A DNA stretch of 64,000 bases from a phage. The position numbers and the translations under genes are program-made. Numbering within the stretch: position 1 is the stretch's first letter; the number at the start of each line of letters is the position of its first letter. Under the pieces are notes generated by a model that was not told the origin of the DNA, ran no database searches, and saw only the letters and a program-made list of their open reading frames with translations. The stretch is taken from the NCBI GenBank assembly GCA_020279385.1, contig GCA_020279385.1_4762.1. One strand, written 5' to 3'. Of the stretch, positions 24,890 to 51,123 are shown in pieces.

Positions 24890-25525
24890 TCAAGCGAACG
24901 TAGAAAGCAAATGTTTTGTTTCTTTCAGTTGTCTTTCAAGATCTTTGCGTTTCTCTTTAAGTTGCATTTTAGCATTATTTCGCTGTTTTTCAACATCTTT
25001 ATCGATGTGCTTAGTCCAATTATCAATATCAGAATAAGTTGGCATACCCAATTCTAGACCTAATGCGGTTGGATACAGGGTAACAGTCCATAAACCGCTA
25101 ATCTTCTTAAATAGGTCTGGGTGTAGTGTACTATCTACATCTTCCGGTGTCAACTCTTTTTCTTCTTTCAGTGGTGGGATCTCGTCATATGGTTCCAGTG
25201 CATTTACTTTAATATCAGATACCTCATCAAAGAATCCGCGTACATCCGCAGGAAATACACAAGCAATTTCCCAACCGTGATCACGCAGAGAAGTAATATT
25301 TTTCACTCCCCCACCATGTGTGATGATTGATGTGACATTGCCATCAAGGTCCACCGAATTTACGAGAAATGGCTTATCGTCTGTCAGATCATTATAAAAC
25401 TGTGCTTCGGCTGTAGTCATCTCCAGAAACAGATCTCGGATCGGACGACCATCCGGTGCGTTACCTTCCTTGAGAGTATAAAAGCGACTTACGATCCATT
25501 TTGGCGGTAAAGCATTAGCGATCAT
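24890..25525 (-). CDS. Hypothetical protein (211 aa) in the T4 61.x position
   Basis: SD AGGAG upstream; between primase and helicase. Confidence 0.6.
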   Translation of the reverse strand: MIANALPPKWIVSRFYTLKEGNAPDGRPIRDLFLEMTTAEAQFYNDLTDDKPFLVNSVDLDGNVTSIITHGGGVKNITSLRDHGWEIACVFPADVRGFFDEVSDIKVNALEPYDEIPPLKEEKELTPEDVDSTLHPDLFKKISGLWTVTLYPTALGLELGMPTYSDIDNWTKHIDKDVEKQRNNAKMQLKEKRKDLERQLKETKHLLSTFA

Positions 25526-40431: not shown

Positions 40432-41901
40432 CTATTCCCCATTGCCATTATACTTTCTTTGCTTAGTTATCCACACTCTAACCATCTCTACTGATTCACC
40501 GTCAGACGGATCAAGAGTTTTTCCTTTTTTCTTCATGCGGTACTTAAATCCGTTAAATCTTGCATTCTCTTGCTCGTTAAAGTCGAACATCTTTTTAAAT
40601 GATTTTCGCCCTTTACGCTCACCGCATTCTAGCGGAATCATTCGGTCTGTTATTACATTGGCATCAGGTAGAAACGTTTTTAGATAATCTACCAACGCCC
40701 AATCAGGAACATATAGATTAACATTCTCCTTGCTCTCGTTGTCTCTCAGGTTACAACGCAAACATAATTGAAATGCTGGTTCCAGATAATCAGACACATG
40801 ACGCGCTTTCAAAAACTCGTTTGTTGGGAGATCGCAACTATTAGCAAGACCTTTTAAAATATCAATCTCCCATCGTTGAGGGTTAAAGCTGAACATCACA
40901 GCAACATTTTTATGATGAATGTAAGAGTTAAGACCATAAGATCCGTAAGGTATCCGCTCACCAATACCATTTGTGCACGCTTCTCGGTCCCGATTAACGG
41001 TATAAATGAAGTCATCGCCACATTCATTTTTAACCATATCAACAAGACGTTCAAAGGTATTGTTTGTTTCTGACTGGTGACGCGACCAGCGTTCGGAGTC
41101 AGTCATAAGGATGATGTTAACTCTATCTGTATTTTTATACTCTTTGAAATATAGTCTGGATTCTAGCGCACTCGGAACAAAATCGCAATTTGCATAGTAT
41201 CGTAGATACTTCCCGCTATATGTATCAAAGAGATTTGCACATGCTATCGTAACCTTTTTAAAGTCTCCCCACGTACCGTGTTTGTTATCGTTCAAGAAAA
41301 CAATTTTCGACCCATTCTTCCGGTGTCCTTCGTTATGTTTTACCATAACGTTGATTTTCTTCTCTAATAACGCCTCATAAAGCCCTCTAAGAGAAGAATC
41401 GATCATATCAGTACCATCCTTTGCACTTTCTATCTTTTCTTTGATAGCGGCCTTCTCAGAGTCTTTTAGAACTAAGTTCTGTAGGCATTCCGATTCGTCG
41501 GCGATTGGTTCGCAATGCTTCGTGATAAGTTCAAGATTAGACTTAAACGGATACTCATTAAATTCAACCAGTTGAGGAACTTCATCAATGTAAAGAGCAT
41601 AATCACCAAACATTTTTGAACGTTCCATATTAGATAACGCTGTATGTGTAATGAATATCACATCAGCACCGTCTTTAACTGATTGCATTATCGACGCTTG
41701 CACTGTCTTAAGGCTTCTTAGTCTGGTGCTATCAATCAAGACAGCACGACCGCCCATTCTTTTAAACTTATTGTAAGATTGTTCACTTAAAACACGAGAT
41801 GGCGAAGCAATAACCGCTTTTTCTTTTGTCTCTAGGACGTGGGAAAGTATAGCATCAGTTTTCCCCGCCGCTGGCAATGCGATTAATGTTTCAATCTTCA
41901 T
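40432..41901 (-). CDS. P-loop NTPase of unknown function (489 aa)
   Basis: N-terminal Walker A (ALPAAGKTDA), Walker B-like (ALYIDEVPQ); no confident family match by eye. Confidence 0.65.
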   Translation of the reverse strand: MKIETLIALPAAGKTDAILSHVLETKEKAVIASPSRVLSEQSYNKFKRMGGRAVLIDSTRLRSLKTVQASIMQSVKDGADVIFITHTALSNMERSKMFGDYALYIDEVPQLVEFNEYPFKSNLELITKHCEPIADESECLQNLVLKDSEKAAIKEKIESAKDGTDMIDSSLRGLYEALLEKKINVMVKHNEGHRKNGSKIVFLNDNKHGTWGDFKKVTIACANLFDTYSGKYLRYYANCDFVPSALESRLYFKEYKNTDRVNIILMTDSERWSRHQSETNNTFERLVDMVKNECGDDFIYTVNRDREACTNGIGERIPYGSYGLNSYIHHKNVAVMFSFNPQRWEIDILKGLANSCDLPTNEFLKARHVSDYLEPAFQLCLRCNLRDNESKENVNLYVPDWALVDYLKTFLPDANVITDRMIPLECGERKGRKSFKKMFDFNEQENARFNGFKYRMKKKGKTLDPSDGESVEMVRVWITKQRKYNGNGE

Positions 41902-42209: not shown

Positions 42210-42368
42210 TTACTTAATGATACTTACTTTACCAGATCCATGACAATGAGCGCAACACCCATCACCACGCAATCCTGTTCCGTTACAGTGTTTACACTTC
42301 TTCAACGGTAAAGCCATTATAGCAAATAAAGCAATAATGAATACCGAAACTAAATTCTCAATAATCAT
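42210..42368 (-). CDS. 52-aa membrane microprotein with DnaJ-like Cys-rich zinc-finger motif (not in ORF track)
   Basis: rc reads MIIENLVSVFIIALFAIMALPLKKCKHCNGTGLRGDGCCAHCHGSGKVSIIK; TM helix then CxxCxGxG...CxxCxGxG. Confidence 0.5.
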   Translation of the reverse strand: MIIENLVSVFIIALFAIMALPLKKCKHCNGTGLRGDGCCAHCHGSGKVSIIK

Positions 42369-42627
42369 AAATCGCCCTCAGTTCTTTATAGCCTCCAATG
42401 TGCTCGTTGTCAATGAATATCTGGGGGTATACAAACCGGAGGCTCTTTGAGTTTAGCCTCCCCGCCAGTTCTTCAATCATATCACGGTCGGGAATAATGT
42501 CAACCCCGACCTGCTTGAATACTGGTTTAAGTGTATACGGAATACCCAGATCATCCAGTAGCTTCATTGCACTAATACAACCATAACAATGATAAGCCTC
42601 TTTCGGTATACCGTATATCTCGATCAT
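42358..42627 (-). CDS. nrdH: Glutaredoxin-like protein (NrdH-like)
   Basis: 89 aa; CxxC redox motif (HCYGCISA); thioredoxin-fold size; near nrdG/nrdD. Confidence 0.65.
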   Translation of the reverse strand: MIEIYGIPKEAYHCYGCISAMKLLDDLGIPYTLKPVFKQVGVDIIPDRDMIEELAGRLNSKSLRFVYPQIFIDNEHIGGYKELRAIYDY

Positions 42628-43130
42628 TTCTCAGCCTTTAATCTTTCTAGTTCTTCTTCCAGTTCCTTGATCCGTTGGTCACGTTCAAAGTCACGCTGTA
42701 ACTTAGTGGCAAATACTCGCTTAAACTGATTGTAATCATCGATTTTAAACACTTCTTCTTCGCCATAGCGACGCACAGAAACTTCGTAGTTATTGAAGAA
42801 TTGTTGCATCATTGCATCAGTAGTCAGTTCTGACGACACCACTTTAAAATAACGTTCTTCTGATTGCAAAAACCAGTTGTGCGCGTATTCCCGTACATCA
42901 TCAACATTGCGGCAGGGGTATACCGTGCCATCAATTTCAATCACAGAAACATAATCGATATCTGGTTCATGGCGATCAAACGCAATAACTTTAAATGGAC
43001 GGTCTCCGATAAACTCTGCTATTGCATCATTTGCAACGCTAGAGTTTGCAAAATCTTCTCTCGTTTTATAATCTTTCCACTGATAGGTCATACCAACAAC
43101 AAACATATTACCAACCTCGCTCTTCACCAA
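42624..43130 (-). CDS. Paralog family A member 1 (168 aa)
   Basis: Shares PFKV...IDG..Y core and C-terminal coiled coil with neighbours. Confidence 0.6.
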   Translation of the reverse strand: MVKSEVGNMFVVGMTYQWKDYKTREDFANSSVANDAIAEFIGDRPFKVIAFDRHEPDIDYVSVIEIDGTVYPCRNVDDVREYAHNWFLQSEERYFKVVSSELTTDAMMQQFFNNYEVSVRRYGEEEVFKIDDYNQFKRVFATKLQRDFERDQRIKELEEELERLKAEK

Positions 43131-43656
43131 TCAAAAATTCAACTTCACGACGTTTAATATCTTCTTGAAGGTCTTTAATCTTCTGGCGATCTTGCATGAT
43201 TTCGTCCATCTTGTCAAGTGCTGCAATAAAATCATCGAAACGTTCAAAGGTTTTACCTTCATTTGCTTCGCCAAATTTAACCATTGTCAGACCATAACGA
43301 CTACTAAACAGACGTTTCAACTGTCCAACGATCTTAGAATCATCGTTCACCTTTTCTTCTGGTTCTTTCACTGTTTCAACTTCACGAAAGAATTTTCTAT
43401 CGAATGGACTAAAGAAATATGTTGCAGTCCAAATGTCTTTTCCTGTAGCAGTTTTCGCCGTATGATAAACACCGTCTAGCTCTATTGCATCAATCCATCC
43501 GTTACCCTCGATCTCGATGATGGTAAATGGCTTGTCACCAATAGCTGCACTAATATCGCTGTTAAGTGGAGAAAGAACACCTTCTCCGTTAGTAATAAAC
43601 TCAGTTTTAGCGTTTTCATCTTTCCAAGTGTAAGTTTTACCAATTTCCCATTTCAT
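43108..43656 (-). CDS. Paralog family A member 2 (182 aa)
   Basis: N-terminus MKWEIGKTYTWKD; PFTIIEIEG...IELDGVY core. Confidence 0.6.
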   Translation of the reverse strand: MKWEIGKTYTWKDENAKTEFITNGEGVLSPLNSDISAAIGDKPFTIIEIEGNGWIDAIELDGVYHTAKTATGKDIWTATYFFSPFDRKFFREVETVKEPEEKVNDDSKIVGQLKRLFSSRYGLTMVKFGEANEGKTFERFDDFIAALDKMDEIMQDRQKIKDLQEDIKRREVEFLIGEERGW

Positions 43657-43668
43657 AATATATTCCCC

Positions 43669-44148
43669 TTAACCGATTTTATCAAGTTCGTTTAATGCTT
43701 TCTCTGCTTCCTGTATAGCTTGCACCCTTTCCGGCATTTTGTCAAGAAAATCTTTCAACTCTTCAAAACTGGAGATATGACGCAAGGCGTTAGCACCGAT
43801 AGCCGCATGTGATTTGCATTCAAAGCGGATTTTATAATTATCCATCGCCAACTTGAGAAGATCAATTAATTTAGATTCTTCTGGAATAATAATTTCTTCA
43901 AATCTGCTACGGTCATGATCCAGAAACCAACAAGATAGACCTACATCGGTTGAACTCATATAAGTTCCATCATGAAGATAAACAGACCGCACGTATCCTT
44001 TTTTCGCATCAACCGACGCAACTTTAAACGGTAATCTCAGATATTTCAAATAATCAACATCATACCATTTAAAAAATTGGTTTGCATCTTTTACATCTTT
44101 CCACGCATAGGTCTTACCAGCTTCCCATTTCATAATATCATCTCTCAT
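43669..44148 (-). CDS. Paralog family A member 3 (159 aa)
   Basis: MKWEAGKTYAWKD motif (after short N-extension); PFKVASVD core. Confidence 0.6.
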   Translation of the reverse strand: MRDDIMKWEAGKTYAWKDVKDANQFFKWYDVDYLKYLRLPFKVASVDAKKGYVRSVYLHDGTYMSSTDVGLSCWFLDHDRSRFEEIIIPEESKLIDLLKLAMDNYKIRFECKSHAAIGANALRHISSFEELKDFLDKMPERVQAIQEAEKALNELDKIG

Positions 44149-44674
44149 TTTTGATACGTGATTCTAATTGGATCATACGGTCGCGCGTTTGTTTGTATTC
44201 TCGGATAGCACCGATCCGGCTAGGCATACCATCCAGTACGCTCTTAATACCTTCTAGGGTAGTAATTTTGGCAATGCTATTATGTAACCCCATCTTATCG
44301 ATCAACTGAATGTCGTAGGCTTCCATAAGCAGACCCAGTCGTTCTAAAGTTAGGTCTTCTTCTTTTTCTTCCGAATCTGGAATCTTAGGTTCAATAGTAA
44401 CTTCGGTAAAGAAACGACGCTCACCTGCCCAAAACCACACGCCGGAACAGCCAATAGGGGATTCTTTTAACGTCATAGAGTCGAAATTACTACCAATAAT
44501 AGTAATTTCTCTAACATCACCATCATCGTCAAGGTCTTCTACCCTAAACGGGCGACCAGCCAACAAGTCAACAATACATCTGTTAATAGACGACGAAAAT
44601 TTAGTCAGTTCGGCTTTCGACGCTTCGCATTCAATCTTGTAAGTTTTACCAACTTCCCATTCCATAATAATCAC
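44138..44674 (-). CDS. Paralog family A member 4 (178 aa)
   Basis: MEWEVGKTYKIE motif; PFRVEDLD core. Confidence 0.6.
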   Translation of the reverse strand: MIIMEWEVGKTYKIECEASKAELTKFSSSINRCIVDLLAGRPFRVEDLDDDGDVREITIIGSNFDSMTLKESPIGCSGVWFWAGERRFFTEVTIEPKIPDSEEKEEDLTLERLGLLMEAYDIQLIDKMGLHNSIAKITTLEGIKSVLDGMPSRIGAIREYKQTRDRMIQLESRIKNER

Positions 44675-44675
44675 C

Positions 44676-45179
44676 TCAAATAATTTTCACTGGAATACTA
44701 TTAACAATCTTGTATTGTACTTGATTGTCAGACCCCCGCCACGGCTTCTTCGTTGGCATATCTTTAATATAACGACCATCTATGAACATGTCAACTGATT
44801 CTACAATTTTTCTTTGCTCATCATTCAATTGGTCAAGGGTATAACCGGACCATAGCCAAATATCTTTATTTGGCATCCATGATTTTACTTCATCGATGAT
44901 CCGCTGTACACCCTTTAAATTGCGTTTATACAGTGGATCGCCACCTAAGAATGTTAGCCCCTGAATAAAATCAGGTCTAAGCAGATCCAGAATCAATCCC
45001 ATTGTATCATCTGTGAATGGTTCCCCGTTCTTAGGATTGAGTAGACTGGAATTAAAGCAACCATCACATGCGTGTGAACATCCGGTAACGTAAAGGGAGA
45101 CTCTCACTCCCTCACCGTTAACCATATCACAATCTTTAATATCGGCATAGCGTAGTTTGCCGTATGTATCAGAACTCAT
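44676..45179 (-). CDS. nrdG: Anaerobic ribonucleotide reductase activating protein NrdG (radical SAM)
   Basis: CxxxCxxC cluster (GCSHACDGC); ~165 aa; adjacent to nrdD region. Confidence 0.85.
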   Translation of the reverse strand: MSSDTYGKLRYADIKDCDMVNGEGVRVSLYVTGCSHACDGCFNSSLLNPKNGEPFTDDTMGLILDLLRPDFIQGLTFLGGDPLYKRNLKGVQRIIDEVKSWMPNKDIWLWSGYTLDQLNDEQRKIVESVDMFIDGRYIKDMPTKKPWRGSDNQVQYKIVNSIPVKII

Positions 45180-45321
45180 ATTCAATTACCCCGAACTCGT
45201 TTACAATCTGCGCTTTATAGTAACCACCGCGAGATGCTAATAGATAAGCTGGGCTTAGGTATTCGTATTCACGGATTTCTACTTGTGCGTTTTCAGTTTC
45301 CCAAATCAGTAAAGTCCACAT
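45169..45321 (-). CDS. Possible small protein (50 aa) overlapping nrdG start
   Basis: rc reads MWTLLIWETENAQVEIREYEYLSPAYLLASRGGYYKAQIVNEFGVIEYEF; SD AGGAG upstream. Confidence 0.3.
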   Translation of the reverse strand: MWTLLIWETENAQVEIREYEYLSPAYLLASRGGYYKAQIVNEFGVIEYEF

Positions 45322-45363: not shown

Positions 45364-45392
45364 AGTATAGGGGATCTCGCGATCCCCGTCAA
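45364..45392 (-). promoter_or_regulatory. Early promoter with spacer palindrome (PeSL-like)
   Basis: rc TTGACG-GGGATCGCGAGATCCCC-TATACT. Confidence 0.6.
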
Positions 45393-45941: not shown

Positions 45942-46346
45942 TCAAAGATCGCGATATTGTACATTATGAAAATGAGAACTTGCATTACCAATATTGTAGA
46001 TAATAAATTCTTCATCCGGCGCTTGCGCTACAAATTGAGTATGAGCAACCGCCACAACCTTAAAAATACGATCCGTGATCTTGTGTTTAATTTCTGCCCC
46101 TACTTCCATAGGAACATATTCATTTGTTTCTGTTTCAGTCGCAAAACAGCCATCTTCTTCATAAGCACGAACAAATCGGTCGCAATCAGTACGCTTAACA
46201 AATTCAAGAGTATATAATTCTCGTGAATTGTCGGTATAGACCAATACAGAATTATTATGATAGCGAATCACATACAGGTTATTATCATCGTCAATTACGC
46301 AAAAGCTACGGATTCCTTCGCCTTGACTCCAGCAGATATTAACCAC
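45942..46346 (-). CDS. Hypothetical protein (134 aa)
   Basis: ORF on early strand. Confidence 0.55.
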   Translation of the reverse strand: MVNICWSQGEGIRSFCVIDDDNNLYVIRYHNNSVLVYTDNSRELYTLEFVKRTDCDRFVRAYEEDGCFATETETNEYVPMEVGAEIKHKITDRIFKVVAVAHTQFVAQAPDEEFIIYNIGNASSHFHNVQYRDL

Positions 46347-46480
46347 CGTTCCTCTAATAAAAAACTTTCCTTTAAATTAAAACTAGTCAATGTGCTAGCG
46401 TGCATTTTAACAACAACACCATCGCCAATTTCCAGTTTACGAAGTTTAACTTCTTTGCTCAGTACACAAAACATCATCAT
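46295..46480 (-). CDS. Hypothetical protein (61 aa from ATGATGATG)
   Basis: SD AGAGAGG upstream; longer track ORF overlaps the promoter. Confidence 0.45.
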   Translation of the reverse strand: MMMFCVLSKEVKLRKLEIGDGVVVKMHASTLTSFNLKESFLLEERWLISAGVKAKESVAFA

Positions 46481-46508
46481 GTTGTCCTCTCTTTGTTTCG
46501 ATGTGAGC

Positions 46509-46536
46509 ATTATACATGAGCTAATCATGTTGTCAA
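46509..46536 (-). promoter_or_regulatory. Early sigma70 promoter (part of repeated terminator-promoter module)
   Basis: rc TTGACA-16nt-TATAAT directly downstream of the nrdD terminator. Confidence 0.6.
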
Positions 46537-46579: not shown

Positions 46580-48442
46580 TTACATGTGCTTAACGCGGTT
46601 TACCATCTCGGAGTGTTTCCCGTGGTTAAATGGACGCAGATCAACAGATCCAAGATATCCACTAACGCGACGGATAACATTCATATTTTCCAGATTGTCA
46701 TTTCCGCAATCAGGGCAAACAAAACCCAACTCGGTCGCTCTCATTTCCTTATTAGATCCGCATACATGACATACATCAGAAGGAGTATTAACACCGAAGT
46801 AGTGCAATTTATCCATTGCATAGTCTACTACAGTTTCAAGACCTTTCAGGTTGTTTTTCATGTCTGGGAACTCAACATAAGAGATCATGCCACCGGACGC
46901 CAGCCAGTGATAATCTTTCTCAAAGTCGATTTTCTCAAATGGTGTGACTTTCCGGTCTACGTCAAGGTGGAATGAGTTGGTGTACCAGTCTTTATCGGTA
47001 GCACCCTTAACAATACCAAATTGCGCTCGGTCCAGTCGATTAAATCGATAGCAAAGGCTCTCGGCTGGCGTACCGTAAAGACTAAACCCAAGTCCGGTTT
47101 CATCCTTCCATTTTTCAGTATAATGACGCAAGATCTTAAGAATATGTTTACCGTATCGCTGCGCATCTTCCGAATCAAACGGATGAACACCAAACAGGAC
47201 GCTCAATACCTCATGTAAACCAATATATCCAAGAGAGATACTAGCGCGACCATCTTTCAACACTTCCAAAATTTCATCGTTTTGATGAATACGGAAAAAT
47301 GCACCTTCTGTATACAGCACCGGAGCAACATTGGCTTTAGCCCCTTTTAAAGCGTCTACGCGACTCATGAGCGCATCAAAACAAATAGGCATACGATTAG
47401 CTAGCTCTTGTTCGAATAGCTCAATTCTGCGCATTACAGACGCTTTACCAGCACGACGCGCGGCAATAATGGCAATACGCGGAAGATTTAGAGTCACAAC
47501 ACCTAAGTTATTACGTCCGTCTAATACTTCTTCGCCTTTCTCATTATGCCACACACCCAGGAAGCTACGACAACCCATCGGGCTAACCGGAACACTAGAT
47601 CCGGTGATACTACGGTTATTCTTCGCAGAGATATAATCAGGGTAAAGACGCTTACTAGAACATTCCAATGCAAGTTGCTTAATGTCGTAGTTCGGATCTT
47701 CCGGTTTAAGGTTTAATCCTTCTTCTAAGAACATCACCAGCTTAGGAAACACCGGAGTGATACCATCTTTACCTAAACCTTTAGTTCGAACTTTCAGGAT
47801 CGCTTTCTGAATCAGTTTTTCTTCCCAGCTAGTCCCCATACCAAAGGTTAAAGTCACAAAAGGCGTTTGACCGTTGGTGGAGAACAAAGTGTTGATCTCA
47901 TATTCCAACGCCTGATATCCGTCTAGCGTTTCTTTTTCTGTCTTCTCTTGTGCATAGAGAGTATCAGCTTTGATTCCGTAGGTTTCGGCATCAGCAAGGT
48001 GTTTATGATATGTTTTCTCAACGTATGGCGCTAAAACCTGATCGATGTTTGCAATTGTGGTCCCTCCATATTGATGACTCGCCACCTGTGCGATAATTTG
48101 AGCGGTTACAGCACATGCAACACCGATCGATTTCGGACTTTCGATTTGTGCGCTACCCAATTTAAAACCATTCTCTAACATGTCTTTGAGATTAACAAGA
48201 CAGCAGTTAGTAAACGGCATAGCGGGTGCATAATCCATATCATGATAATGAATGTCACCGTCTACATGCGCTTTATAGATGTGCTCAGGTAACACGGTTT
48301 TAGCAATCTGTTTAGACACAGCACCAGCAATCAGATCTCGACGTGTCGGGAATGTTCGCGCGTCTTTGTTCGCGTTCTCTTTGCTTACTTCGTTTTCTTT
48401 ACCCGTTGCGATCTCTGTAATGTCTTTGATTAGTTTTTCCAT
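46580..48442 (-). CDS. nrdD: Anaerobic ribonucleoside-triphosphate reductase NrdD (uninterrupted)
   Basis: 620 aa; C-terminal glycyl-radical motif (IRRVSGYLGS) and Cys cluster (CHVCGS...CPDCGN). Confidence 0.9.
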   Translation of the reverse strand: MEKLIKDITEIATGKENEVSKENANKDARTFPTRRDLIAGAVSKQIAKTVLPEHIYKAHVDGDIHYHDMDYAPAMPFTNCCLVNLKDMLENGFKLGSAQIESPKSIGVACAVTAQIIAQVASHQYGGTTIANIDQVLAPYVEKTYHKHLADAETYGIKADTLYAQEKTEKETLDGYQALEYEINTLFSTNGQTPFVTLTFGMGTSWEEKLIQKAILKVRTKGLGKDGITPVFPKLVMFLEEGLNLKPEDPNYDIKQLALECSSKRLYPDYISAKNNRSITGSSVPVSPMGCRSFLGVWHNEKGEEVLDGRNNLGVVTLNLPRIAIIAARRAGKASVMRRIELFEQELANRMPICFDALMSRVDALKGAKANVAPVLYTEGAFFRIHQNDEILEVLKDGRASISLGYIGLHEVLSVLFGVHPFDSEDAQRYGKHILKILRHYTEKWKDETGLGFSLYGTPAESLCYRFNRLDRAQFGIVKGATDKDWYTNSFHLDVDRKVTPFEKIDFEKDYHWLASGGMISYVEFPDMKNNLKGLETVVDYAMDKLHYFGVNTPSDVCHVCGSNKEMRATELGFVCPDCGNDNLENMNVIRRVSGYLGSVDLRPFNHGKHSEMVNRVKHM

Positions 48443-48486: not shown

Positions 48487-48981
48487 TTATTTTACCAGTT
48501 CTGCTAATTCTTTTTCCGCCGCTTCCAGTTCAGCTTTCAGTTGTTTGATCTCTTGTCGCTTCTTATTAGCGGCTTCCTGCTTACTATTTCGGATAATCTG
48601 ATCTAGATATGAATCCCACTCCTGAATATTTTTGATAATGTAACCGTCAACATTAATTGGTCGGAGATTTAGTACAGCTTCCAGTTTAGTTGCAAAAACT
48701 TTAATTGCTGGTGTGAAGTATTCATACTCGTTATCTTCAAACCAATAACCTAGACTTGCATTATCAATACGAAGACGAAGTTTAAGATCAAGGTCTTTAT
48801 CTTCGGTGTAAAGATCTTTCACCTGCCCCATCGAGCTAACAACAACTTTAAAACGAATTTTATCTACACCGCCAAAAACATCTTCAAGAATATCAGCAAT
48901 TGAGCTATTAGCGCAAGATTGGTCGCTGAATGCGTCAAGATTTTCTTTAGTTACAGTATACCAAATATCTTGTTTCCACAT
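48487..48981 (-). CDS. Paralog family A-related protein (164 aa)
   Basis: ANSSIADILEDVFGG...IRFKVVV core and C-terminal coiled coil resemble 42624-44674 genes. Confidence 0.55.
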   Translation of the reverse strand: MWKQDIWYTVTKENLDAFSDQSCANSSIADILEDVFGGVDKIRFKVVVSSMGQVKDLYTEDKDLDLKLRLRIDNASLGYWFEDNEYEYFTPAIKVFATKLEAVLNLRPINVDGYIIKNIQEWDSYLDQIIRNSKQEAANKKRQEIKQLKAELEAAEKELAELVK

Positions 48982-49011: not shown

Positions 49012-49039
49012 ATTATAGCATACTCCCTTTGCATGTCAA
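49012..49039 (-). promoter_or_regulatory. Early promoter with inverted repeat around -10 (PeSL-like)
   Basis: rc TTGACA-16nt-TATAAT; GGGAGTA/TACTCCC arms. Confidence 0.65.
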
Positions 49040-50214
49040 GCACCAACTTTTTTCTTTACTGCTTTCACCTTCTGGCGAATTGCTCGAATCTCTTCGATCT
49101 CTTTTTCAGTCTCTTTAACAATTTCTTTGCGATTCTGAATATCTGTATCGAGATTATCATCAAGTTTAGGCAGCATGTCAATCAAGAACTTTTTAAGGTC
49201 TTTCAGGTTTCGGATAACAGCACCTTCACCCATTACCGCAACACCAACACCATCCGGCAGATCACCAAACAGTTTAACCAGTTCAGACAGATGATCATGG
49301 TCTTCTAATGCTTCCTCCGGTTCAGATGGCAGTTCAACAAAGTTATAACGTTCATCATTGCTGATCAAGTGATACCAGCAAAGCCCGAAAGATTTCGGTG
49401 TATATTCTACACCATCAATTTCAACCGCGTCAACACTTCCATAATCATCTACTTTAGTTACCTTAAATCCTTGTCCCAGCTTTTGAACAATTTCAACAAC
49501 ATGACTTGATACAGTTTCAGCGGTAAACCAATATGGCAAATTATGCTGATTTGGCTTGTAGCGTTCACCTACTTTAAATCTCTGACCATCCGCTTGCATA
49601 GAATGAAATTGTTGTTTCGTGATTTCCGCGAAGTATTCAAATTCGCCACCATCAAACACACAAGCCCATTGATCACAAAAACGATCTGCCTTAACAGTTT
49701 CACCTTTCGCGGTGATCATGGTAGCCGATCCATGAAATTCTTCTTCAACTAAAAAGCCATATTCGACAAAATCAACAAGTTTCATAGCTTCTTTGTGGTC
49801 TGGATCATGCTCTCCCCAGAATCGCTTAAATTCTTGCAAACCTTCTGGGGTAAACGAATAACATTTACCTTTTTCAAAGTAAGTCGGCATTGCATCCTCT
49901 TTCTTGTTCATCGCTTCGTATGCCTCTTTTGAGATGCGTTTAAAGTATTTACGCTCATTGTGCATAATCATAGTGGCCCAATAATCAACAATATCATTAG
50001 CGGAATAAACTACATCTCCAGCTTCAATAGTAATAACATGACCGTGGTCATCTTTTTCTAATACTTTAAAGCCCTTTTCTACGATTTCAGCAACCCGAAT
50101 ATGACCACGGCGCGAAGCATCGGTCAGAATAATTGAATAGCGAGAAAAGTCTAGAAACTCATCTTTACCGCCTTCACGGAATGCATAGTAATGACCTTCA
50201 AAGAATTTAGCCAT
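49036..50214 (-). CDS. Paralog family A-related protein (392 aa) with internal duplication
   Basis: Two copies of KGFKV...G.V..IE.DG.EY module. Confidence 0.6.
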   Translation of the reverse strand: MAKFFEGHYYAFREGGKDEFLDFSRYSIILTDASRRGHIRVAEIVEKGFKVLEKDDHGHVITIEAGDVVYSANDIVDYWATMIMHNERKYFKRISKEAYEAMNKKEDAMPTYFEKGKCYSFTPEGLQEFKRFWGEHDPDHKEAMKLVDFVEYGFLVEEEFHGSATMITAKGETVKADRFCDQWACVFDGGEFEYFAEITKQQFHSMQADGQRFKVGERYKPNQHNLPYWFTAETVSSHVVEIVQKLGQGFKVTKVDDYGSVDAVEIDGVEYTPKSFGLCWYHLISNDERYNFVELPSEPEEALEDHDHLSELVKLFGDLPDGVGVAVMGEGAVIRNLKDLKKFLIDMLPKLDDNLDTDIQNRKEIVKETEKEIEEIRAIRQKVKAVKKKVGA

Positions 50215-50244: not shown

Positions 50245-50273
50245 ATCTTACTACTCCCGTTTCATCATGTCAA
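50245..50273 (-). promoter_or_regulatory. Early promoter with inverted repeat around -10 (PeSL-like)
   Basis: rc TTGACA-17nt-TAAGAT; GGGAGTA/TACTCCC arms. Confidence 0.65.
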
Positions 50274-50836
50274 GCGTTAAATGACTTTTGGATCTCTTTC
50301 AGTTCAGCTACTTTATCGGCGCTGAATTTAGCGTAGGTATCATGTCGAATAATTTCACTTTCAAGAAAGGTTTCCAGCCGAGATCTATTTTCAATAAGGA
50401 ACTCTTTCAGGTCTTCCGCGTTCTTGATAAAGATTTTATTGTCAGTAATGTCATCTTCAATCGCAAAGGAGATAGAGCGAACTTTACCAAACAAGTTAAT
50501 CAGATCTTCCAGCGATTCTTCTTTCTTAACTGGTTTCATTTCTTCAAACTGCTTTTTAGTGATTCGTTTAAAGTATTTGCGCTCGCTTGCGTCAATCATG
50601 ATTGACGCGCCCTCATAATCATGAGTTTCTACCAAATACACTTTACCCATAACATTAACCGTAAGAACTTTAAAGCCCCTGTGAAGCACACCATACAGGA
50701 ACTTGTTATGTTGTGGATAGCGTTTGATAAATTCCTCTGCGGACTCAGCATTACGGAAAGTGTAATAACGACCTCGTTCAAAAACAGCATCATTTGAAGA
50801 CTTAGCTGGATACAATTTATACGTTTTCTGTACCAT
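50270..50836 (-). CDS. Paralog family A-related protein (188 aa)
   Basis: RGFKVLTVNVMGKVYLVETHDYEG and ERKYFKRITK shared with the 49036 gene; SD GAGGA. Confidence 0.55.
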   Translation of the reverse strand: MVQKTYKLYPAKSSNDAVFERGRYYTFRNAESAEEFIKRYPQHNKFLYGVLHRGFKVLTVNVMGKVYLVETHDYEGASIMIDASERKYFKRITKKQFEEMKPVKKEESLEDLINLFGKVRSISFAIEDDITDNKIFIKNAEDLKEFLIENRSRLETFLESEIIRHDTYAKFSADKVAELKEIQKSFNA

Positions 50837-50850
50837 AATATAATCCTCTA

Positions 50851-51123
50851 TCATTTCACTAATTGAACAGCACGAAACAGAATGCGGTCACACGGAAGAA
50901 GCATAAATTCCCAACGCGGATCAAAGTCTTTAGCGGTATATGTTTTCCCATCAACCGAGATTTCACTTACATAACCAATAGGTGACACTTTAAGAACAGT
51001 AAACCCATTCTTGATGACTTCGTAGGTATCTTTCAATCCTTCGTAGTCATCCTCTAGGAAGTCTTTACGTGCTTGCTCAGATTTAAAAACATAGGCCACA
51101 CCGGATTTAAACATCTTACGCAT
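50851..51123 (-). CDS. Paralog family A-related protein (90 aa)
   Basis: NGFTVLKVSPIGYVSEISVDGKTY module; SD AAGGAG before ATG at 51123. Confidence 0.55.
   Translation of the reverse strand: MRKMFKSGVAYVFKSEQARKDFLEDDYEGLKDTYEVIKNGFTVLKVSPIGYVSEISVDGKTYTAKDFDPRWEFMLLPCDRILFRAVQLVK

Follow-up and report, generated by a model that had tools for sequence, protein, structure and literature searches.

A tandem array of GoF/Frd.2-like genes with shuffled N-terminal domain alleles between nrdG and nrdH of a Krischvirus

What are the four related genes that stand in tandem between nrdG and nrdH of an RB49-like phage, and what could such an array do for its carrier? We addressed this question in a 64,000-nt stretch of phage DNA (contig GCA_020279385.1_4762.1 of assembly GCA_020279385.1; hereafter the window). 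The genome that hosts the array is a Krischvirus (an RB49-like, T4-type coliphage), and the region is 95-99% identical to 59 phage records including RB49, Phi1, JSE, and GEC-3S. The four genes, called paralogs A to D here, are co-oriented on the minus strand with nrdG on one side and nrdH on the other; the intergenic gaps are 1-12 nt, and the stop of paralog A overlaps the start of nrdH. Taken together, the results described below show a GoF/Frd.2-family array whose N-terminal domain alleles are shuffled among relatives, and we consider it probable that the products are oligomeric host-takeover adaptors with a swappable recognition domain. The array and its flanks are as follows, with N-domain and C-domain denoting the N-terminal and C-terminal domains.

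44676..45179 (ORF 44676-45185), minus strand: nrdG, anaerobic ribonucleotide reductase activase according to the RB49 annotation; conserved upstream flank, 96-99% aa identity in 19 phages.
44138..44665, minus strand: paralog D, orthologue of RB49p051 (99% identical); GAGGTG Shine-Dalgarno site before the ATG at 44665; phrog_5347 E 3.7e-66.
Parts of paralog D, minus strand: N-domain ~44396-44665, acidic disordered linker, C-domain ~44141-44368; AlphaFold2 pLDDT 74.6.
43669..44133, minus strand: paralog C, 154 aa, orthologue of RB49p050; N-domain ~43870-44133, C-domain ~43672-43878; phrog_5347 E 1.7e-59.
43108..43656, minus strand: paralog B, 182 aa, a shortened RB49p049; phrog_5347 E 4.9e-50.
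Parts of paralog B, minus strand: N-domain N1 43372-43656, deletion junction 43370/43371, C-domain ~43111-43347.
42624..43106, minus strand: paralog A, 160 aa, orthologue of RB49p048; N-domain ~42828-43106, C-domain ~42627-42830; phrog_5347 E 1.3e-55.
42358..42627, minus strand: nrdH-like glutaredoxin gene; conserved downstream flank of the array.

An initial annotation had described four consecutive open reading frames (ORFs) of 168, 182, 159, and 178 aa within 42624-44674, and all of them were found there, on the minus strand at 42624-43130, 43108-43656, 43669-44148, and 44138-44674. The ORF-finder starts were over-extended upstream in three of the four genes (A, C, and D), and Shine-Dalgarno sites together with the RB49 annotation led to revised starts at 44665 for D (175 aa), 44133 for C (154 aa), 43656 for B (182 aa), and 43106 for A (160 aa). 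The RB49 counterparts of D, C, B, and A (RB49p051, p050, p049, and p048) are all annotated as hypothetical. Pairwise BLASTP showed that all six comparisons among A-D were significant (E 4e-12 to 5e-4, 23-29% identity, mostly over the full length), and the four proteins matched phrog_5347 end to end (profile positions 1-165). The four genes are true, diverged tandem paralogs with a shared fold, and their similarity goes well beyond chance, which bears out the four tandem paralogs proposed in the initial annotation; neither a chance-level alignment nor a match to a structural protein, the two outcomes that it had named as speaking against it, turned up. At the DNA level, only the first ~30-44 nt, coding for MKWE.GKTY, can still be aligned among A-D, and the genes are therefore old duplicates. 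The motifs ascribed to the whole set held in part: B, C, and D have the MKWE/MEWE start, whereas A begins with MFVVGMTYQWKD, and the (I/L)DG..Y core described as common to all four is missing from D.

The lead to T4 goF came from PHROG matches ranked below phrog_5347 and labelled "goF mRNA metabolism modulator"; this kinship did not figure in the initial annotation. A hidden Markov model (HMM) of the four paralogs matched T4 GoF over residues 1-106 with 34 bits. An N-domain profile, built as alignment A3 of the eleven window N-domains that could be delimited, matched residues 1-92 of T4 GoF with an hhalign probability of 96.3% (E 1.8e-9) and residues 2-86 of T4 Frd.2 with 87.3% (E 3.8e-6). The match to MotB.1 was weak (hhalign 69% with only 43 aligned columns; 9 bits with the four-paralog HMM). 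Against 1.84 billion representative proteins, the N-domain profile retrieved 86 representatives at E up to 0.001, among them P0163 (65% identical to T4 GoF; E 3.1e-6) and P0187 (35% identical to T4 Frd.2; E 2.6e-4). About ten long hits (~470-5100 aa) aligned with a short stretch of the profile only, mostly many times over, and were rejected as repeat-summed false positives; seven of them were scanned, and six proved to be Big_2, cadherin-like, or ankyrin repeat proteins, with only weak DUF matches in the remaining one. Since all the long hits were rejected, the search yielded no informative domain fusion, and the remaining representatives are small proteins. In tblastn searches of metagenomic relatives against cultured phages, P0152 had no match and P0128 matched Krischvirus only. 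By profile similarity, A-D belong to the "LSm-like fold" family of Tevenvirinae early proteins, which comprises T4 GoF (ComC-alpha), Frd.2, and MotB.1 (Kim et al., 2025; PMC12152347).

The position of the known T4 goF mutations in this alignment was also noted. The suppressor G84R affects the residue before FF in the ER.FF.EV motif and aligns to residue 84 of D (codon 44414-44416); as read from the alignments, five of the 11 window N-domains have R or K at the equivalent position, so that this gain-of-function change moves GoF toward a residue common in the expansion. D25Y maps to a length-variable loop between the two inserted helices of the domain.

The four proteins have a common layout consisting of a ~90-aa N-terminal beta-barrel, a disordered acidic linker whose length differs among relatives, and a ~70-aa C-terminal domain. 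In the AlphaFold2 model of D, which was built on a 52-sequence alignment and is of moderate confidence on average, the N-domain (residues 1-90; block-mean pLDDT 68-89) is a five-stranded beta-barrel (strands 8-11, 40-45, 51-56, 64-67, and 86-89) with two helices inserted after strand 1 (14-23 and 26-35), followed by a linker with pLDDT below 50 (93-103) and a long helix (137-174). The C-domain is predicted to consist of a helix, a beta-hairpin, a short helix, and a long amphipathic helix; modelled by itself, it reached pLDDT 83.9 with a long helix of ~28 residues. The C-terminal coiled coil proposed in the initial annotation is supported by this long helix. The pattern of helix, strand, strand, and helix with "I..x..eelk.fL" and a heptad-like tail is common to A-D, to the ORFs at 48487, 49036, and 50270, and to metagenomic relatives, and its structural neighbours are generic oligomerisation or coiled-coil modules only. 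No hydrophobic segments were found in the A-D proteins, which are soluble and mostly acidic. The N-domains of A, B, and D have a pI of ~4.6 and a net charge of -6 to -7, and that of C is near neutral (pI 7.8). Residues W/F3, G6, Y9, PF40, V42, G49, WF77-78, and ER.FF.EV are kept in all N-domain alleles; the fold is retained while the remaining, probably surface, positions vary.

Although the published family name refers to LSm, the predicted N-domain fold is best called SH3/FeoA-like, not Hfq. FeoA and IdeR SH3-like domains were among its structural neighbours, the nearest folds being FeoA, IdeR SH3, Tudor, and KOW, and no Hfq chain appeared among the top 60. Membership in Hfq/LSm was rejected, with an hhalign probability of 0.15% against E. 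coli Hfq, a missing N-terminal Sm helix, and acidic domains; Sm/Hfq sequence motifs are absent from the N-domains. FeoA family membership was rejected as well (no Pfam match; hhalign 1.1% against E. coli FeoA), the likeness being one of fold only. The Pfam scan of A-D returned only sub-threshold noise (RuvC_1, DUF4686, HTH_Tnp_2, and similar) and no LSM/Hfq at E up to 1, the NCBIfam scan of A-D gave no match, and the PADLOC scan of A-D for host defence proteins gave no family at E up to 0.1. A sequence-profile search of the PDB gave nothing but a generic coiled-coil match to JIP3 (E 0.019), and the 53 matches of a BFVD structure search include none with a functional name, the named ones being phage proteins.

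These data bear on the idea that the products are RNA-binding, LSm-like chaperones whose N-domains shield particular phage or host transcripts from decay or premature 3′-end formation, the four copies serving different transcripts. The homology of the N-domain to GoF, the PHROG label "goF mRNA metabolism modulator" on relatives, and the R or K found at the G84-equivalent position in 5 of the 11 window N-domains favour it. So does the mutant GoF(D25Y), which raises a reporter with the gene 41 leader post-transcriptionally, through RNA stabilisation (PMC12152347). Against it, wild-type GoF and MotB.1 had little effect in the same assay, the mutant alone raising the reporter (PMC12152347). The acidity of three of the four N-domains, a topology without the N-terminal Sm helix, and the failure of Pfam and hhalign to connect the domain with LSM or Hfq also argue against such chaperones, and we regard them as unlikely. 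FeoA, IdeR SH3, Tudor, and KOW folds are typically protein-interaction modules. In view of these nearest folds, the strong acidity of three of the four N-domains, and the lack of Sm/Hfq motifs, a protein target is favoured over RNA.

The initial annotation had described a family of four genes. The four tandem genes stand, but at least five more family members were found elsewhere in the window, for a total of nine family genes with twelve N-domains. The array is one part of a lineage-specific family expansion, to which the following genes also belong.

48487..48981, minus strand: member E (probable), 164 aa, RB49p057; N-domain and coiled-coil C-domain; phrog_15067 and, more weakly, phrog_3710.
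49036..50214, minus strand: member F, 392 aa; three N-domains followed by one C-domain; four-paralog HMM E 5e-18; phrog_8944 E 3.5e-213.
50270..50854, minus strand: member G, 194 aa; N-domain and C-domain; HMM E 2.6e-7; phrog_8944 E 3e-102.
50851..51123, minus strand: member H, 90 aa; N-domain only; HMM E 1.2e-7; phrog_16115; phrog_5347 E 5e-8.
24890..25525, minus strand: member K (distant), 211 aa; directly downstream of the gene 41-type helicase gene; HMM E 3.6e-5.

Member F is annotated in RB49 as "frd.2 / goF mRNA metabolism modulator". Member E did not match the four-gene HMM significantly (E 1.8); it is linked to the family through its architecture, phrog_3710, VOG4723, which it has in common with D in the annotation of phage kvi, and its 50%-cluster representative P0125, which the N-domain profile found with E 4.6e-15. 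For member K, the representative P0132 was found by the N-domain profile (E 5e-10), and its BFVD match is the ECD7 orthologue "Dc2".

To describe the variation of the array, the interval from nrdG to nrdH was compared in 19 loci, namely the window itself, 16 Krischvirus records from GenBank, and the only two IMG/VR contigs that a scan with nrdG had yielded, with the proportions of nonsynonymous (pN) and synonymous (pS) differences calculated by the Nei-Gojobori method for whole genes or segments. The results showed that NrdG and NrdH are 96-100% identical among the 19 loci (pN 0.004 and 0.005; pS ~0.06) and that the C-domains are similarly conserved (pN 0.002-0.03; pN/pS 0.02-0.12), whereas the N-domains of D, C, and A and the second N-domain of B (B-N2) reach pN 0.13-0.20 and pS 0.28-0.38. 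Nucleotide diversity alternates accordingly along the array, with 0.14-0.25 in the N-domain segments and 0.01-0.05 in the C-domain segments, B-N1, and the flanks. In paralog A, for instance, the N-domain is just 60% identical to that of RB49p048 and the last 70-75 residues of the C-domain are ~94% identical. The variation takes the form of two to three discrete N-domain alleles per gene, 44-81% identical to one another (in paralog C, two alleles at 46-48%), which are reassorted into 13 combinations in the 19 phages. The alleles are slot-specific, with 44-81% identity within a slot and 18-40% between slots, so gene conversion between paralog slots was rejected as the source of the variation; the exception is B-N1 versus B-N2 (39-51%), which fits an internal duplication. 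Since synonymous divergence is also raised in the N-domains, the alleles are old and swapped by recombination rather than products of fast evolution in place. The near-invariant C-domain segments and flanks could putatively serve as homology arms for such swaps.

Between alleles, the N-domain pN/pS was 0.40-0.59, and within allele classes it was 0.05-0.40 (0.14-0.40 in seven of eight), while the corresponding C-domains stand at 0.01-0.10. In most comparisons, constraint on the N-domains is thus several-fold weaker than on the C-domains. Of the diversifying selection suggested in the initial annotation, the diversification is confirmed and is concentrated in the N-domains; gene-wide dN/dS gave no sign of positive selection, with pN/pS below 1 everywhere tested.

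Whole domains and genes have also been gained and lost. In most relatives gene B encodes 274-281 aa with two N-domains (RB49p049, 274 aa), and in B of the window N2 has been removed by a deletion, precise and in frame, between direct repeats coding for (K)FFREVE. N2 of RB49 is flanked by a 24-bp exact direct repeat coding for DRKFFREV, and N2 of the other allele type by a 15-bp repeat; two N2 deletions have taken place at these repeats. The deletion in the window arose in a UPWr_E1/JK32-type background and left the linker ETVKEPEEKVNDDSK, while ELT4 bears an independent N2 deletion in an RB49-type background with the linker EELEVITTDSK. Among metagenomic variants, P0105 keeps N2 only and P0101 joins the D N-domain with the C-domain of B in a fusion. 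At the level of genes, D is wholly absent from KFS-EC, which has three genes where most relatives have four, and frameshifts affect D in G37-3, the D C-domain in ECD7, and A in ELT4, though sequencing errors are possible in these cases. On the uncultured contig SRR8048117_11785 (locus L021, 568-3270), at least six tandem family members directly follow an nrdG that is 71% identical to that of the window; every one of them carries an N-domain, to which the five complete proteins add a coiled-coil C-domain, and their identity to the window proteins is 22-40%. The contig ends inside the sixth gene, so its copy number is a lower bound. Because a tandem array also follows an nrdG only 71% identical, the array at this position is therefore ancient, with a copy number ranging from three to at least six. 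Short direct repeats code for the conserved domain ends (KWE.GKTY and DRKFFREVE), and whole N-domains are duplicated, deleted, or fused there; whole genes have probably been duplicated, deleted, or fused at repeats in the same way.

A variable domain on a constant scaffold, with old and reassorting alleles, would be expected of anti-defence or host-range factors, each N-domain neutralising or evading a component of host immunity or restriction and the allele swaps tracking host diversity. The initial annotation had leaned toward host-interaction or anti-defence factors in an accessory island. The array does lie in a plastic spot between conserved nrd genes, with copy numbers from three to at least six, and the natural frameshifts and losses suggest that the genes are dispensable, which suits such factors. 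The anti-defence role itself was not upheld by any link of the family in Pfam, NCBIfam, or PADLOC, in whose annotated families no similarity was found. It is further weakened by pN/pS below 1 everywhere tested, by the conservation of B-N1 (pN 0.018), which departs from the other N-domains and speaks against an arms race with the host, and by the lack of a laboratory phenotype in T4 family knock-outs, which plated without defect on the laboratory strains of that study (PMC12152347). We therefore hold this explanation to be rather doubtful.

The losses and frameshifts in KFS-EC, G37-3, ELT4, and ECD7, together with the lack of known domains, could instead point to functionless or selfish filler, that is, duplicates drifting in a recombination hot spot, or to minor virion proteins. 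This is highly improbable. Purifying selection on the C-domains (pN/pS 0.02-0.12) is as strong as on nrdG and nrdH, and the array persists in the same place in the relative whose nrdG is 71% identical, which together make non-function unlikely. Moreover, the N-domain core residues are kept across alleles, and nearly all of the 59 genomes have uninterrupted reading frames preceded by Shine-Dalgarno sites. As for virion proteins, no virion-protein family was matched, and the whole window contains the T4 late-promoter motif TATAAATA just twice, neither time within ~16 kb of the array.

The neighbourhood of the array (gp55, a 489-aa P-loop protein, 55.2, nrdH, nrdG, and nrdD) is the prereplicative nrd region of a T4-type genome. 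One candidate promoter lies where a transcription unit including the array would probably start.

45364..45392, minus strand: sigma-70-like promoter, consensus match 10/12, upstream of a small ORF, nrdG, and the array, whose transcription unit probably starts here.

GEC-3S carries an annotated promoter at the place equivalent to 45392-45364. A perfect sigma-70 consensus (12/12; TTGACA, 16 nt, TATAAT) is found at 46536-46509, following the nrdD terminator at 46574-46553. No terminator-like site was found inside the array in a consensus scan. Two internal consensus promoters, at 44794-44766 and 43685-43657, were treated as unproven; the latter cannot serve B because it ends one base before the B start codon. 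The four genes would accordingly to this arrangement of sites be co-transcribed with nrdG and nrdH before replication. A second 12/12 sigma-70 promoter was noticed at 49012-49039 on the minus strand, directly upstream of family member E (48487-48981), and the arrangement of the two perfect promoters resembles the promoter/stem-loop cassettes described for RB49-type phages.

We propose that sigma-70-type promoters drive prereplicative transcription of the four genes along with nrdG and nrdH. Each protein is probably oligomerised by its constant C-domain, through the long helix, and the target of the variable SH3-like N-domain would be some macromolecule of host or phage, with a protein more likely than RNA. 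On this view the products are dispensable adaptors for host takeover, which would tune gene expression or the fate of mRNA, or handle host-specific factors, each paralog with its own specificity and the specificities being traded between phages by recombination. The pattern of frozen scaffold and variable head suggests different targets in different hosts, or a benefit from having several alternatives; it fits the idea of host interaction without proving it. The loss of D in KFS-EC and the frameshifts of D or A in G37-3, ECD7, and ELT4, with the caveat on sequencing errors given above, fit dispensability. In T4, the early protein GoF is abundant, with an estimated ~20,000 copies in each cell, and both GoF and MotB.1 run as monomer and dimer (PMC12152347).

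Several points weigh against this proposal of host-takeover adaptors. Oligomerisation by the C-domain and protein binding by the N-domain are both properties that we infer, and early expression rests on consensus promoter matches. The N-domain of paralog C is not acidic (pI 7.8). The raised synonymous divergence of the N-domains could in part reflect import from distant phages without selective meaning. Finally, the one activity measured for any family member is an effect on RNA stability, seen with the mutant GoF(D25Y) (PMC12152347).

A bolder version, which we put forward as decidedly speculative, is that the nine family genes form a combinatorial repertoire, in which coiled-coil C-domains would build homo- or hetero-oligomers displaying exchangeable N-domains for different host factors. 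The targets might be a defence sensor, Rho or RNA polymerase, or a component of RNA decay, and phage populations would hold a pool of old N-domain alleles that are reshuffled by recombination at the constant segments. If true, this would be a phage counterpart of variable-domain/constant-domain systems and would point to the function of wild-type T4 GoF.

GoF has been puzzling since the 1970s: goF mutations rescue T4 on rho-mutant hosts. Its family was recognised in 2025, on the basis of three single-copy genes in T4, and the locus described here shows that the GoF family can reach a dozen domains in one genome. It also provides a natural experiment, in that the differences between otherwise near-identical phages fall almost exclusively in the N-domains of the individual paralogs, with the C-domains frozen, which points to the N-domain as the specificity determinant; the ready-made allele sets offer a practical route to what GoF-type domains bind.

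Some observations were made on the genes around the array. Between nrdH and 55.2, a 52-aa ORF (42210-42368, minus strand) encodes two CxxCxGxG motifs (CKHCNGTG and CAHCHGSG) behind a hydrophobic stretch at the N-terminus. It resembles a membrane-anchored DnaJ-type zinc finger and is hypothetical in relatives and unannotated in KMB43 and Sf20. The 489-aa protein between gene 55 and 55.2 (40432-41901, minus strand) has an N-terminal P-loop-like LPAAGKT and belongs to phrog_2467 (unknown function); the Sf20 record annotates a DEAD/DEAH-box helicase domain in it. The RB49p055 homologue (179 aa, phrog_14838) is split by a frameshift near 46356 into 46295-46530 and 45942-46346 on the minus strand; tblastn puts residues 1-41 and 41-178 in different frames, with two gap positions relative to RB49 DNA. 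The homologue in pEJ01 is likewise annotated as two pieces. The split reflects either a pseudogene or a sequencing error. In JSE (locus L016, 1-2069) a homing-endonuclease gene interrupts nrdD, whereas nrdD of the window (46580-48442) is intact and encodes 620 aa.

Databases have listed the four genes as hypothetical ever since the sequencing of RB49, and their fold family was published in 2025. The only paper found on frd.2, motB.1, and goF was that of Kim et al. (2025; PMC12152347), which does not mention RB49, Krischvirus, or paralogs, and the paper on modular shuffling in RB49 and phi1 (PMC2839356) mentions neither these ORFs nor nrdG/nrdH. In the literature checked, we did not find the assignment of phrog_5347 genes to the GoF family, the size of the Krischvirus expansion, the subfamily with a coiled-coil C-domain, the shuffling of alleles at the level of domains, or the recurrent repeat-mediated domain deletions. 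The array represents a new subfamily within a known family, not a new kind of system.

Compared with the T4 family, the window proteins have a homologous ~90-aa N-terminal barrel with an aromatic-x-Y motif near the start, PF.V, and ..FF.EV at the end; in both cases FeoA/IdeR SH3-like domains are structural neighbours, a flexible linker leads to a differing C-domain, and the small acidic proteins are encoded among prereplicative genes of a T4-type phage. They differ in that the C-domain of helix, hairpin, and long helix is absent from the three T4 proteins, barring a possible common strand-helix element, and in that T4 has three dispersed single-copy, single-domain genes where the window has nine genes and twelve domains, four of the genes in tandem, as well as proteins with several domains. 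MotB.1 is only weakly linked (69%), and allelic N-domain cassettes and domain-level indels are undescribed for the T4 genes. With Hfq and Sm/LSm proteins, to which the published family name refers, the N-domains have in common a small, five-stranded, bent beta-sheet. The window N-domains show no significant sequence or profile similarity to FeoA or to the SH3-like C-terminal domains of DtxR/IdeR/MntR (CATH 2.30.30.90), the His/Cys metal ligands are absent here, and the context is unrelated (a phage, with no FeoB). Hyperplastic regions and modular shuffling in T4-type genomes have been described by Arbiol et al. (2010; PMC2839356) and Comeau et al. (2014; PMC4122927). The array resembles these regions as a set of variable genes, mostly of unknown function, between core genes, exchanged at short conserved sequences among RB49-like phages. 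However, the unit of exchange here is a protein domain within a gene, and the homology arms would be coding sequences, namely the C-domains and domain-end motifs, instead of promoter/stem-loop cassettes.

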